DNA from: Candidatus Gottesmanbacteria bacterium GW2011_GWA2_43_14
Lineage (GTDB): Bacteria > Patescibacteriota > Microgenomatia > 2-02-FULL-39-11
NCBI GenBank assembly: GCA_000999095.1
Contig: LCFP01000009.1
Span: 1-47,646, forward strand
DNA: 47,646 nt
Direction of reading: 5' to 3'
The position numbers were made by a program, and so were the translations under genes. The notes under the pieces are model-generated. The model was given only the letters and a program-made list of their open reading frames with translations. It had not been told where the DNA came from and did no database searches. Below, piece by piece: positions 23,294-27,028 of the stretch. Each line of letters begins with the position of its first letter. Position 1 is the first letter of the stretch.

Positions 23294-24853
23294 GTGGCGA
23301 TATTTGCTTATCTGATCAGGTTGTTAATTCTTTTCTTTTTGTATTTTTCCACAGCTTGGTTTGGTTTAAGACTGGATCCGGTTGAAGGGTTTGCTACGCT
23401 TTTCTGGCCTCCAACCGGTATTGCCCTGGCATTTGTCTTCCTTTATGGCTATAAATTATGGCCGGGGGTATTCAGTGCTGCATTTTTTATCAACCTTCTT
23501 TTCGGAGCACCATATTTATCAGCCTTAGGCATCAGCATCGGAAATACGCTGGAAGCGCTTTTGGGTTCGTATATTCTTAAAAGGTTTATTAAATTCAACC
23601 CCGGTATTTCCCGTATCAGAGATGCCGTGGGACTCATCTTTATTACCGCACCATTAAGCACTGTCGTAAGTGCCATAACAGGAACTGTCAGCTTGAATTT
23701 AGGGGGGATGATAGATCAGGGATCTGTTTGGAAAACTTTCGGAAGCTGGTGGCTGGGCGATATTACCAGTAATCTGGTTGTGGTACCTCTTTTTTTTCTG
23801 TATCTTCATCAACCGTTCGCCAAATTGTCAGACCTTAAATTAACTCAGCTAATTTTATTTATAATAAACTTCTTTATCAGTATCTATATTTTTTTTGGCT
23901 TTTCAGATTTTATGACCCGTGCATCGCCGTTATCCTATCTTGTTTTTCCGCCGCTGATATTAACCTCAATTGTAGCCGGACAAAAGACTGTGGTGACCAG
24001 CGCTTTTTTGGCAGCTATTATCAGTGTTTATTCCACGGTAAAGGGACAGGGTCCCTTTGCTGGAAATGACCTGTTTTACAGTCTTTTACTTGTTCAGAGC
24101 TTCATGAGCATTTTATCCATTACCGTCATATTATTGTCAGCCGCGATCTCGGAAAATAAAAAATTGGAATTGCAAAAAGATGAATTTGTCAGTATCGCTT
24201 CACACGAGTTAAAGATGCCTTTAACCACTTTAAAGGCGCTGACTCAACTGTTGATGAAACGGTATCAGCAGGGTAAAAACCGGAGCAAATTGCTTTATAT
24301 AGAAAAAATGGAAATACAAATTAACAATATAATCAGATTGGTAAATGATTTGCTGGATGTTTCAAAATTAAATTACGGCTTGTTGGAATTGAAAAAGGAG
24401 AAAGTCAGCCTTAACAGGTTGATTGATGATGCCAGGGAATTGGCTCTGGTAAAAAAACGGAATCCGGTAACCTATTTACCGTTGAATAATGACAAGATAA
24501 TCGAAGTAGATAAGGAGAGAATAAATCAGGTAATTTATAACCTCTTAATTAATGCCATGATCTATTCCGCCAAAGGAAAAAAAATAATCATCAGAATCAT
24601 AAACGGGGAGGGTTACATAACTGTTGGTATCAGGGATTTCGGAAAAGGTATCGCCTTTGAGGACCGGGGCAGGATCTTTGAAAAGTTTTACCGGTCTGAT
24701 GATAATTCATCTGAAAAAGGATTGGGTTTAGGTTTATATATTTGTGCTGAAATAATTAAACAGCACCATGGAAAAATCTGGGTCTTCAGTAGAGGAAAAG
24801 GGGAGGGGTCTGAATTTTTTTTCAGTCTGCCTTTATCCACCCATGCCCATTAA
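23294..24853 (+). CDS. MASE1-domain sensor histidine kinase (orphan)
   Basis: MASE1 FWPPTG/WWLGD; H box SHELKMPL; N box NLLINA; DFGKGI, FEKFYR and GLGLGLYI. Confidence 0.93.
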   Translation: MAIFAYLIRLLILFFLYFSTAWFGLRLDPVEGFATLFWPPTGIALAFVFLYGYKLWPGVFSAAFFINLLFGAPYLSALGISIGNTLEALLGSYILKRFIKFNPGISRIRDAVGLIFITAPLSTVVSAITGTVSLNLGGMIDQGSVWKTFGSWWLGDITSNLVVVPLFFLYLHQPFAKLSDLKLTQLILFIINFFISIYIFFGFSDFMTRASPLSYLVFPPLILTSIVAGQKTVVTSAFLAAIISVYSTVKGQGPFAGNDLFYSLLLVQSFMSILSITVILLSAAISENKKLELQKDEFVSIASHELKMPLTTLKALTQLLMKRYQQGKNRSKLLYIEKMEIQINNIIRLVNDLLDVSKLNYGLLELKKEKVSLNRLIDDARELALVKKRNPVTYLPLNNDKIIEVDKERINQVIYNLLINAMIYSAKGKKIIIRIINGEGYITVGIRDFGKGIAFEDRGRIFEKFYRSDDNSSEKGLGLGLYICAEIIKQHHGKIWVFSRGKGEGSEFFFSLPLSTHAH

Positions 24854-25009
24854 TATTATTGAGATTGTATTTAAATTATAAATATTAAAAGTTTAAAATA
24901 AATTTTACAGCGATAATAAAAAAATGACATCATAAGCGGAGGACAGGGGAGGAGTATTGTTTAAAAGGTGATGTAGTTTGATATAGGTATTAATTTTAGC
25001 CTATAGTAT

Positions 25010-25066
25010 TGTGGATAACTTTTCACGATGAGACTTTTCACAAGTAAGAAATTCTTACAATCCACA
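25010..25066. promoter_or_regulatory. DnaA-box-like cluster
   Basis: Perfect TTATCCACA on the minus strand (25010-25018), CTTTTCACA (25034-25042), CAATCCACA (25058-25066); also TTATCCACC at 24833-24841 and an AT-rich tract at about 24851-24925. Confidence 0.45.
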
Positions 25067-25113
25067 GAGGGGTCTGCCCGGGAGGAGGGAATGGAAACGA
25101 GGCTAATTTAAAG

Positions 25114-25445
25114 ACTTTAGAGCAACAGGAAGCGCTATTCTCTTCTCTATATAAAGATAATGAACAATTATATTACGCATAATAATGTCAGTTTAGATTG
25201 ATATGACGCTCCAAAATTAATGCGTACATGCCCCTGTCTTTAAAAATTAGCCTTAAAAATTATACTTAAGAATGTTCTAAAGCGCTAAAAACCCGAAACA
25301 GCGTTCCATCAAAAGTCAGGATTTCAGGCTTAAAATTAGAGGTTTAGACTGTTCTTATGCTCCAAATTACGTTACAGACTGGCTGCTGCCTTATAAATTT
25401 GCAGCCTCAAATACAAAAATATAGAGCGTTAATACGCTCCAAACT
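25114..25445. repeat. Degenerate array of five 28-bp 11-6-11 quasi-palindromes, period 74-77 bp
   Basis: 25114 ACTTTAGAGCA-ACAGGA-AGCGCTATTCT; 25190 AGTTTAGATTG-ATATGA-CGCTCCAAAAT; 25264 ACTTAAGAATG-TTCTAA-AGCGCTAAAAA; 25341 GGTTTAGACTG-TTCTTA-TGCTCCAAATT; 25418 AATATAGAGCG-TTAATA-CGCTCCAAACT. Confidence 0.7.
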
Positions 25446-26042
25446 GAAGTAGATTCAAAAATAACCCGAAAGTGCTTTATGAAGACCGATGCCCATTACT
25501 CTTTGAGTAATCTTTAATCCATTAAGTACCATGCGGTAACAATTCAGCCACTTCTCGAAAGCAGTAACCTGCTGTCCTTGTAAGTACTGCTTCTCTGTAT
25601 TGGGAGGTATGGGCAAAATGAACCCGGGGTATTTCAGGGATTTTCCAAACGAATTGTCGGCAGGGAATAAAACTAGTTTTGTCGCACAATAATTCTTTTG
25701 CGACGTTAACCAGCCTGGCCGCGGAGAAGGGGCTGGTTTTTGATTTATCCGTTGTAGACCAAATCCGTGAATTTATTTATTTGATTATTGTATTAAATCA
25801 GGAAGAAGATCCGGCAATTATATCCCCGTATAGCATGGTACCAAAGAGGTTCACAGAACTTGCCGGACAATTGGGCATCAGCTGTAATTTGAAGCCATTC
25901 TGGGGCATTACAGCCGGTCAGTAACAAGGCTAAATTTAGGGCAGTACGAGCCAGGCTTTGAATCCTAAGGATTGGTAATAATGGACTGTCAGGACAATCT
26001 AAAGTTATTAATTGAGGCTGTTGGCTAAGTTTCTGGAGAAAC

Positions 26043-26071
26043 TTGACAAAAAAAAGGTGACGTCGCAAAAT
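26043..26071 (+). promoter_or_regulatory. Sigma70 promoter of the xer gene (leaderless layout)
   Basis: TTGACA-17 nt-CAAAAT-6 nt-ATG (26078). Confidence 0.6.
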
Positions 26072-26077
26072 ATTAAT

Positions 26078-27028
26078 ATGAGCAATCTGCCCGATTTGGT
26101 TGAAAAATTTTTGGAATACCTGGAAATCGAGAGAAACTGTTCCAGATTAACCATCCGCAATTACCGCCATTATTTGAACCGCTTTACCGGTTTTGCCCAC
26201 AGGTATTCCCCTCCCCTGGATAGCGCCGAACGGATTTCGCCTGATGTCATCCGTGCCTACCGTTTATTTCTTTCCCGATATTCGGACGGGAAAGGCATGG
26301 TTTTGAAGAGGATCACCCAAAATTACCACCTGATTGCAATAAGGGCATTTCTGCGTTTCCTTATAAAAACTGATGTGGTTACTTTAAATCCGGAAAAAGT
26401 CGAATTGGGAAAAGCCGAAAGCCGGAGCCTGAAATTTCTGAATTTAGAACAGGTAAACAGACTGCTGAATATGCCTGAAATATCCACACCCCAGGGACTT
26501 CGCGATAAAGCCATCCTGGAAATATTGTTTTCGACAGGATTAAGAGTGTCGGAACTGACCAGGCTTAACAGGGATTCCATAAATTTGGACAGGAGGGAAT
26601 TCGGCGTTATCGGCAAGGGCGGTAGGGCCCGGGTGGTTTTTGTTTCGGACGGGGCTGCCAAATGGATTGAACGTTACCTGGCTGACCGCAGCGATGATTA
26701 CGAGCCTCTTTTTATCCGCTACTCAGGCAAAAAAGCCGATATGGAAGCTGCCGGAAACAAATACCGTCTGACGGCCAGATCAGTCCAGCGCATTGTGGAA
26801 AAATACGTAAAAAAAGCCCGGTTGCCGATAAAAATTACCCCACATGGTTTAAGGCATACTTTTGCCACGGATTTGCTGTCCGGCGGCGCCGACCTTAGAG
26901 CCATCCAGGAAATGCTCGGCCATAAAAACATTTCCACCACCCAGATTTACACGCATGTCACCAACCCTCAATTGAAGGAAATCCACCGCAAATTCCACAG
27001 CAAACCTTCTTTAAACGCGGAGACGTAA
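26078..27028 (+). CDS. XerC/XerD-type tyrosine recombinase
   Basis: N-terminal SAM-like FLEYL..ER..S.LT..NY; RDKAILE.LFSTGLRVSE, GKGG.R, TPHGLRHTFAT, QEMLGH..ISTTQIYTH (catalytic R-K-H-R-H-Y intact). Confidence 0.95.
   Translation: MSNLPDLVEKFLEYLEIERNCSRLTIRNYRHYLNRFTGFAHRYSPPLDSAERISPDVIRAYRLFLSRYSDGKGMVLKRITQNYHLIAIRAFLRFLIKTDVVTLNPEKVELGKAESRSLKFLNLEQVNRLLNMPEISTPQGLRDKAILEILFSTGLRVSELTRLNRDSINLDRREFGVIGKGGRARVVFVSDGAAKWIERYLADRSDDYEPLFIRYSGKKADMEAAGNKYRLTARSVQRIVEKYVKKARLPIKITPHGLRHTFATDLLSGGADLRAIQEMLGHKNISTTQIYTHVTNPQLKEIHRKFHSKPSLNAET

Follow-up and report, generated by a model that had tools for sequence, protein, structure and literature searches.

In the plasmid sites cer and psi and in transposon resolution sites, e.g. 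the IRS of Tn4430, accessory protein-binding DNA directly abuts the recombination core and is bound by PepA, ArgR or ArcA or by the recombinase itself. The Tus-Ter and RTP-Ter systems use asymmetric, orientation-specific sites near the terminus, which are dispersed or paired. Here we describe a tandem array of five units beside a candidate dif site, both upstream of a gene for an Xer-type tyrosine recombinase (xer), in Candidatus Gottesmanbacteria bacterium GW2011_GWA2_43_14. The window, i.e. the whole stretch of 47,646 nucleotides (nt) that was analysed, is contig C9 of a genome (G000) of 1.65 Mb in 24 contigs that is 98% complete. By analogy to cer, psi and the Tn4430 IRS, the array appears as a few hundred base pairs of ordered DNA on a fixed side of the core, seemingly not recombined itself, with protein binding and a role in shaping the synapse being predicted here. 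It differs from cer and psi in being chromosomal, in standing about 225 bp from the core, in consisting of tandem units of about 76 bp with a motif of their own and in the presence of FtsK-gamma in the genome. As with Ter sites, the units are asymmetric, in one orientation and near dif; unlike Ter sites, they form an array with a period of about 76 bp.

A dif-like site just upstream of the recombinase gene is described for XerS/difSL of streptococci and lactococci and for XerH/difH of Helicobacter and Campylobacter in the abstracts of four articles (PMC2731167, PMC2965235, PMC3325230, PMC5357621), one of which states that H. pylori has a single type-IIA topoisomerase (PMC3325230). The present locus shares with these systems the site upstream of xer, and only one type-IIA topoisomerase A subunit, with no second, was found in the genome; it differs in its arm sequences, and the abstracts on those systems describe no repeat array. 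In B. subtilis, dif-like XerD-binding sites (XDS) unload SMC near the terminus (Karaboja 2021, as cited in passages of PMC11840125 and PMC12322038), and in the archaeon Thermococcus kodakarensis, according to passages of PMC11840125, a dif intergenic region of about 1.9 kb forms an SMC-dependent boundary with filament-forming TrmBL2, the dif-flanking DNA, and not dif or Xer, carrying the protein-dependent function. Our units resemble XDS as additional, putative protein-binding sites near dif that would organise the chromosome and not recombine, and the locus resembles that of T. kodakarensis in that dif lies in a large intergenic region (1.2 kb here). In contrast to XDS, however, the units are not dif-like, and while the archaeal region has no discrete repeated motif, here a discrete motif is arranged in tandem. 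Moreover, searches of the G000 genome detected neither an SMC hinge nor a complete SMC nor ScpA, and TIGR02168 gave matches only below the cut-off, which disfavours the SMC-based parallels (XDS and the TrmBL2 boundary); the units were thus rejected as XDS or SMC-unloading sites on this ground and because they hold no Xer half-site. A limited literature search yielded no description of dif or of such arrays for Patescibacteria or the candidate phyla radiation.

The array is real, unique in its genome, conserved in sequence and orientation and kept at a fixed distance from the candidate dif site. Its sequence behaviour leads us to favour, tentatively, the reading that the units are protein-binding sites on duplex DNA, which would build an accessory nucleoprotein structure beside dif.

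The array and its conservation

The 1.2-kb gap at 24854-26077, without convincing open reading frames (ORFs), holds both the array and the dif candidate. Units were scored with an nhmmer model built from 34 units of other genomes and with R1, a sequence-only covariance model built from an alignment (A1) of 39 units; expectation values (E) from both are given below with the features of the gap and the genes that border it.

23294-24853: MASE1 histidine-kinase gene, to the left of the 1.2-kb gap
25096-25144, plus strand: unit 1, with the upstream word inverted (AGGCTAAT, at 25100) and the dyad TTTAGAGCA-N6-AGCGCTATT; nhmmer E 0.15, R1 E 0.007
25172-25220, plus strand: unit 2, with the word ACGCATAA and the dyad TTTAGATTG-N6-CGCTCCAAA; nhmmer E 8e-3, R1 E 8.6e-6
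25246-25294, plus strand: unit 3, TTAGCCTTAAAA ... TTAAGAATG-N6-AGCGCTAAA, followed by AAAAACCCGAAAC; nhmmer E 6e-3, R1 E 2.2e-7
25323-25371, plus strand: unit 4, CAGGCTTAAAA ... TTTAGACTG-N6-TGCTCCAAA, the best match; nhmmer E 3e-6, R1 E 9.9e-9
25400-25448, plus strand: unit 5, the last, CAGCCTCAAAT ... TATAGAGCG-N6-CGCTCCAAA; nhmmer E 3e-5, R1 E 3.6e-8
25456-25472, plus strand: A-run and CCCGAAA word after the last unit, a direct repeat found also after unit 3 (25287-25305)
25473-25680: gap between array and dif, roughly constant in length and variable in sequence
25681-25704, plus strand: candidate dif core, GTCGCACAA-TAATTC-TTTTGCGAC
26078-27028, plus strand: Xer-type tyrosine recombinase gene, 316 amino acids from the ATG at 26078, to the right of the gap

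The five units at 25096-25448 lie on the same strand, where a sequence-only reading of this DNA had placed them, with dyads at 25116-25139, 25192-25215, 25266-25289, 25343-25366 and 25420-25443, and the spacings it had given (76, 74, 77 and 77) were recovered from the projected unit starts. The pattern TWWAGA-N10-GCKCYAAA, allowing for one mismatch, matched four times in the window, each time exactly and within the array, while dinucleotide shuffles led us to expect 0.35 +/- 0.56 matches and none of 100 shuffles reached four, so that the proposed shuffling test puts the pattern beyond chance. The genome-wide motif scan agreed: a looser expression gave six matches on both strands of the whole genome, four of them inside 25192-25443, and the array is unique in this genome. 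The four best genome-wide matches of the nhmmer model were likewise units 4, 5, 3 and 2 (E 3e-6 to 8e-3), with unit 1 a weak match.

As for the anatomy of the units, the 28-bp length first proposed has to be extended, as 45-49 nt are conserved without gaps and the upstream word stands at a fixed distance from the dyad. The consensus reads TTAGCCTCAAAA-ATAAnAn-TTTAGAGCG-TTATnA-TGCTCTAAA or, in simplified form, TTAGCCTCAAAA, about 10 nt, TTTAGAGCG, 6 nt and YGCTCTAAA, and the A1 columns G25, A26, A35, G37, C40 and A42 show little or no variation. The upstream word AG(G/C)CT(T/C)AA was correctly recognised before units 3, 4 and 5 (25249, 25326 and 25403); in unit 1 it is inverted, and in unit 2 its place is taken by ACGCATAA. 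Within the genome the units are 67-74% alike; units 2 and 4 share 67% over 27 nt, near the 20 of 25 claimed for them. A supposed sixth copy near 25041 was matched by no model, and this stretch forms a separate 7-bp hairpin. The units are separated by about 30 nt that hold no ORFs and no cargo, and parts of these spacers are conserved between genera. Tandem Repeats Finder missed the array because the units are too divergent, and on loci of other families it reported only repeats of 7-14 nt and no period of about 76. A 771-nt contig of the same strain matches the window exactly (24711-25481). The gain or loss of units that had been suggested as a check was not seen: contigs from four DNA runs (depth about 4; contigs only, with the other pieces coming from relatives) held no copy-number variant.

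Beyond this genome, R1 found units at one locus per genome in 20 of the 21 genomes of the family (Candidatus Gottesmanbacteria), the genome in which they were missed being 75% complete; eleven of the family genomes with arrays had not been used in building the model. Of 151 genomes sampled across the class, 34 had units at E of 1e-4 or below, and these 34 belong to 11-12 families. The number of units varies, being 2-8 over 21 arrays with about 9 indicated in G019. Strict helical phasing did not hold, since only 31 of 60 spacings in the 21 arrays fall within 72-80 nt and the others are longer. In the manner of cer and psi, the array always lies upstream of dif and on the same strand, in the family loci as well as in all 13 genomes outside the family that have both features (G101, G040, G053, G047, G147, G030, G059, G079, G120, G161, G076, G117 and G034), and in 16 of 21 arrays the last unit begins 246-288 nt ahead of the dif core (median 269; 277 nt here). 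Families whose dif departs from the pattern at two or more bases likewise have the array in front of a variant site that can be recognised. The sequence of the gap between array and dif is not conserved, a relative's contig having 167 other letters in place of 25478-25659, and six-frame ORFs of 21 genomes included none shared in this gap.

The variants of individual units keep their place across families, e.g. ACGCATAA in the first full unit and the inverted word in the leading unit. The inverted word marks the first-place unit also in G001 and G012, the ACGCATAA/TGCATAA variant occupies the matching position in G001, G002, G012, G007, G009, G035 and G067, unit 3 was matched by blastn in G010, G030 and G004, and the A-run with the CCCGAAA word follows the last unit in G001, G002, G012, G007, G009, G011, G098 and G147. 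Unit 4 aligned to a gap in G001, a genome of the same genus, G000 thus having one unit more. Judged by this conservation, the array reflects purifying selection and is a conserved non-coding element of Gottesmanbacteria and of at least ten other families of the class. In family f30 (loci L039-L041), 7-nt repeats of the AATTTCT type are present in 4-6 copies on both sides of the dif-like site, about 56-95 nt from it; they are another repeat next to this site, specific to that lineage.

That the array is a decayed relic (a CRISPR remnant or the ends of a dead mobile element) or a chance similarity in AT-rich DNA is exceedingly improbable and is refuted by its conservation. The modest likeness of the units would suit such an origin, but they have been kept in 11-12 families with invariant columns and a fixed geometry, and chance is excluded by the shuffles. 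A CRISPR array was rejected on the same low likeness, on the spacers being partly conserved between genera and on the lack of Cas1 in the genome.

The candidate dif site and the skew break

The strongest conserved piece of the 1.2-kb gap in blastn comparisons with 40 relatives was 25670-25746, up to 96% identical in other families, and it contains the dif core. With at most one mismatch, the dif pattern occurs in 105 of the 201 genomes that were sampled from the class (a tally that takes in the unpublished G086), in 104 of them as a single copy and in G008 as two copies 230 nt apart, while the reversed pattern, used as a control, gave no match in all 201 genomes. Among the 105 matching genomes the centre varies widely and the arms are conserved. 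At base 5, C alternates with T (on the right arm, G with A) independently on each arm, which suggests two like protein-binding half-sites and not an RNA stem. The xer orthologue starts 350-790 nt downstream of the dif-like site, on the same strand, at 20 of 29 loci from several families (locus L022, whose one-mismatch site was missed by the regular expression, was left out of this count), and of 68 xer loci whose upstream flank measures 1400 nt or more, 38 have a dif-like site within 1.5 kb.

In eight single-contig genomes the dif-like site lies 0.25-0.43 genome lengths from dnaA. In the complete genome G022 (785,860 bp), the minimum of the cumulative GC skew is at 125 kb, next to dnaA at 127 kb, its maximum is at 585 kb and the dif-like site is at 620.9 kb, i.e. 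36 kb from the maximum. At dif the skew changes from positive (about +30 per kb) to about 0 with no flip of sign; in piecewise fits the break lies 0.3-1.1 kb from the site in three genomes, namely G000 (+33 to +4 per kb; break at 26,000, dif at 25,681), G011 (+31 to +1; 95,000 and 94,000) and G099 (+38 to -1). Break and site are farther apart in G006 (2.9 kb), G192 (6.5 kb), G009 (10.9 kb), G088 (18 kb) and G022 (25 kb), and G002 is ambiguous. The zone of flat skew beyond dif extends over at least 21 kb in G000 and about 145 kb in G011, where it reaches to about 238 kb and is followed by a slope of -27 per kb. The site stands at one edge of the flat zone, with the CACAA arm always facing the skewed side. 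We therefore take 25681-25704 as the candidate dif of this chromosome, placed at one edge of a zone of flat skew.

Such a sharp edge would be explained if the array were a polar barrier to replication forks or a translocase, at which a terminator-like protein stops forks that arrive from the dif side and so fixes the edge of the termination zone. Asymmetric sites in tandem and in one orientation are typical of barriers (Ter/RTP, Tus, those of rDNA), the array is always on the strongly skewed side, and the skew of G000 and G011, about +30 per kb, falls to about 0 no more than 1 kb from the locus. However, the skew of G099, which has no array, also breaks within 1.1 kb, the break of the array-bearing G009 is 10.9 kb away and that of G002 ambiguous, and G088 and G022 are off by 18 and 25 kb. 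As the nine genomes are few and related and no terminator protein is known here, we regard a barrier as unlikely.

Arms, half-sites and candidate binders

The units were compared with the Xer half-site GTCGCAMAA, to which 25096-25448 has no match with up to two mismatches; in the 1.2-kb gap such matches are confined to the two dif arms, 25862 (two mismatches) and 26062. Perfect half-sites are rare, with only 15 in the genome, three of them in this gap. In addition, the A/T-rich ends of the units (TTTAGA and TCYAAA) face outward and their G/C-rich parts face the centre, the reverse of the polarity of a dif core, and together with the missing half-site this shows that the units are not dif; they were rejected as dif or Xer cores. 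The view of the sequence-only reading that a non-random, phased, multi-site array stands at the Xer locus is borne out, except that its sites are not dif-like, recombination-core or cassette-like.

An array of dif-like or other recombination core sites, multi-dif or cassette-like, on which the neighbouring Xer would act is thus highly improbable. Its outer hexamers do stand 12 nt apart, which is the geometry of a dif core, and recombination between units could cause the difference of one unit within the genus and the range of 2-9 across arrays. But besides the absent half-sites and the reversed polarity, the position-specific variants kept across families speak against homogenisation or shuffling, the spacers carry no cargo and the contig of the same strain shows no copy-number variant. 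Spacers of about 30 nt without ORFs also led to the rejection of an integron or cassette array.

The 11-6-11 palindrome of the units proved to be only apparent, since each arm keeps its own consensus without covariation. Over nine arm pairs 68.9% of cells can pair compared with 70.3% in shuffles, 438 of 500 of which scored as high, and the covariation score of the arms was 0.140 against 0.164 in shuffled arms. Pairing at each position equals the expectation under independence; A26, for instance, stays A opposite T, G or C, and of the two arms the right one (A-GC-CTA) is the better conserved. Without covariation each arm is evidently selected for its own sequence, which fits recognition on duplex DNA and argues against selection for RNA or a cruciform. 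The option of protein binding raised earlier is consistent with this behaviour, and we infer from it that a protein binds the units. A search of Rfam gave nothing at the gathering score and, up to E 5, only two rows at chance level.

The product of the neighbouring xer gene (26078-27028) matches Pfam Phage_integrase (E 6e-45) and Phage_int_SAM_1 (E 1.7e-15). The genome has two further tyrosine recombinases, on C4 (5975-6880) and on C11 (30744-31649). The Xer-type enzyme of C4 is present in 19 of 21 genomes of the family and 141 of 151 of the class and is unlinked to dif; by these counts the class has two core Xer-type enzymes, and the locus, unlike XerS and XerH, need not belong to a single-recombinase system. 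For the C11 enzyme, no orthologue was found in the family, and matches at E 1e-40 were limited to two of 151 class genomes, one of which is G000 itself; it is strain-specific and probably the integrase of a mobile element. Neither the C4 nor the C11 recombinase follows the distribution of the array in 34 of 151 genomes, and both were rejected as its binder by co-occurrence. A Trans_reg_C regulator encoded beside a lone dyad-like site was rejected as well, since just 5 of the 21 genomes of the family have it. FtsK, including its gamma domain, and ParB are present, and with one type-IIA topoisomerase A subunit and neither SMC hinge nor ScpA found in a genome 98% complete, this organism may lean heavily on Xer and FtsK.

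Flanking features and a predicted accessory role

Further conserved words flank the array and dif, and xer has a promoter-like site of its own:

24937-24955, plus strand: purine box, in the conserved left flank (24937-25044)
within 24937-25044, plus strand: GATATAGT-type repeats of the conserved left flank
24978-25007, plus strand: promoter-like site TTGATA-18-TATAGT (10 of 12 in a promoter scan), reading towards dif
25010-25018, plus strand: perfect DnaA-box word TGTGGATAA, in the left flank
25020-25026 and 25035-25041, plus strand: two TTTTCAC words, in the left flank
25710-25741, plus strand: hairpin CCAGCC...GGCTGG with a T-run, as read from the sequence, containing the purine word GGAGAAGGGG (25723-25732)
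25892-25941: conserved block of AAGCCATTCTGGGGCATTACAG then AAGGCTAAATTTAGG between dif and xer, kept across the family
26043-26077, plus strand: xer promoter-like site TTGACA-17-CAAAAT, ending at the ATG and with no Shine-Dalgarno word
26062-26070, plus strand: perfect Xer half-site GTCGCAAAA, overlapping the xer promoter-like site

The stretch 24968-25041 is conserved in seven genera by blastn, and words of the left flank precede the array also in distant families. The AAGGCTAAATTTAGG part of the block at 25892-25941 is an inverted repeat of the upstream word of the units. The half-site in front of xer is unchanged in G001 and G006 and has one altered base in G002; its position over the promoter and the missing Shine-Dalgarno word suggest autorepression and a leaderless mRNA.

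Throughout the class, the dif-like site comes with the DnaA-box word TGTGGATAA and two or three TTTTCAC(G/A) words, whose order and orientation change between families, and in G022 one of only 11 perfect DnaA boxes sits 190 nt from the dif-like site. These words, seen here at 25010-25041 and also at the loci L023, L024, L026-L029 and L145-L156, are distant from dnaA and from the skew minimum. An iteron origin, to which the words at 25010-25041 might point, was rejected, as the skew has positive values upstream and values of about 0 downstream, and in G022 the skew minimum is at dnaA.

The purine-rich words GGGGAGGAG and GGAGAAGGGG (24937-24955 and 25723-25732) recur at set places in most families, and a pyrimidine counterpart stands about 110 nt before dif, e.g. 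at 25590-25600. A similar purine word follows dif after 20-35 nt at most loci across families. As an FtsK-orienting (KOPS- or SRS-like) word it was rejected, its ratio between leading and lagging strands being no higher than predicted from base skew in G022 and G011; the purine words, having no genome-wide strand skew beyond base composition, are therefore probably not FtsK-orienting words. An unbiased ranking of k-mers for such words was swamped by the G+T skew.

Among the neighbouring genes, the MASE1 histidine-kinase gene of G000 sits between a gene for a DUF5656-type membrane protein and the array, whereas a common coding 3' end directly abuts the conserved left flank in the alignment of at least G001, G003, G007 and G011. 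Beyond xer follow folD, gyrA, the H+-pyrophosphatase gene and gyrB on the other strand; gyrA and gyrB thus lie 1 to 9 kb from xer with the pyrophosphatase gene between them. Far from the array, Rfam identified a tRNA (48 bits) at 370-441 of the window that ARAGORN did not call and that overlaps the start of an ORF at 367-1323.

The promoter-like site at 24978-25007 is about 90 nt upstream of unit 1 and conserved together with the array, so that the units could be operators for a transcription factor controlling this promoter and, through it or by looping, xer, which itself seems to be autoregulated via the half-site in its promoter. Nevertheless, 4-9 sites spread over 300-700 bp downstream of a promoter would be an unusual layout, dif and the hairpin with its T-run intervene between the units and xer, three lone dyad-like sites elsewhere in the genome are upstream of unrelated genes, and the nearby Trans_reg_C regulator is confined to the five family genomes mentioned; an operator array, like a fork barrier, is unlikely. 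The same promoter-like site, taken with the terminator-like hairpin beyond dif, would delimit a transcript of about 730 nt with five modules, e.g. a sponge for a protein. The region is non-coding and conserved, the array-dif gap keeps its length and the T-G combinations of some units would pair as G-U on the plus strand, all of which would suit a modular non-coding RNA. Yet the sole recurrent helix lacks covariation, Rfam gives no match, the DnaA-box-like words beside the array differ from family to family in order and orientation, in the manner of DNA sites, and the dif arms vary as two independent half-sites, which makes the RNA quite unlikely, slightly more so than operators. Among 13 sequencing runs, no RNA run was listed as covering the region.

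We accordingly return to the reading favoured at the outset, that the units are bound by protein on duplex DNA. Each unit would be a docking site for a sequence-specific protein, the dyad being occupied by two subunits and the upstream word providing a third contact. Once loaded, the units would assemble into an ordered nucleoprotein structure, always on the same side of dif and about 225 bp from it, across DNA that may be of any sequence. As an accessory region this structure could serve the Xer/dif/FtsK machinery, e.g. by bending or wrapping the DNA, and might so present or synapse dif in a controlled way.

Several points weigh against this reading. To our knowledge, chromosomal dif sites elsewhere need no accessory sequences, FtsK giving the control, and FtsK-gamma is present in G000. 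The array is about 225 bp from dif and not adjacent to it as in cer and psi, and the promoter-like site upstream with the hairpin and T-run downstream leave a transcript possible. No word of the units resembles the Xer half-site, given the lack of matches at two mismatches; the likeness of GCCTCAAAA to GTCGCAAAA in 7 of 9 positions is weak, an unscored reading by eye of consensus words. No binding protein was identified among the candidates compared by co-occurrence. Finally, 117 of the 151 sampled class genomes are without the array at E of 1e-4 or below, so that it is either dispensable for the basic function of dif or diverged beyond detection.

Chromosome completion and separation in the candidate phyla radiation are essentially unstudied. 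What is new here is a dif candidate for the class Microgenomatia, an Xer linked to it by gene position, a second conserved recombinase and a countable array at a fixed distance from dif, and together they make the question testable with a fragment of 700 bp and a few proteins. A further-reaching and rather doubtful possibility is that in a large branch of this radiation, which seems to lack SMC condensin and topoisomerase IV, the final unlinking of sister chromosomes is organised by a dedicated nucleoprotein array beside dif that would represent a new class of terminus-organising element with a binding protein of its own. In that case the array, whether an equivalent on the chromosome of the accessory sequences of plasmids or a polar barrier, would sharply mark off one side of a wide termination zone free of skew and would offer dif to FtsK and Xer. 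If the array does shape recombination or termination, a chromosomal dif can carry an accessory architecture of the kind so far described for plasmids and transposons.

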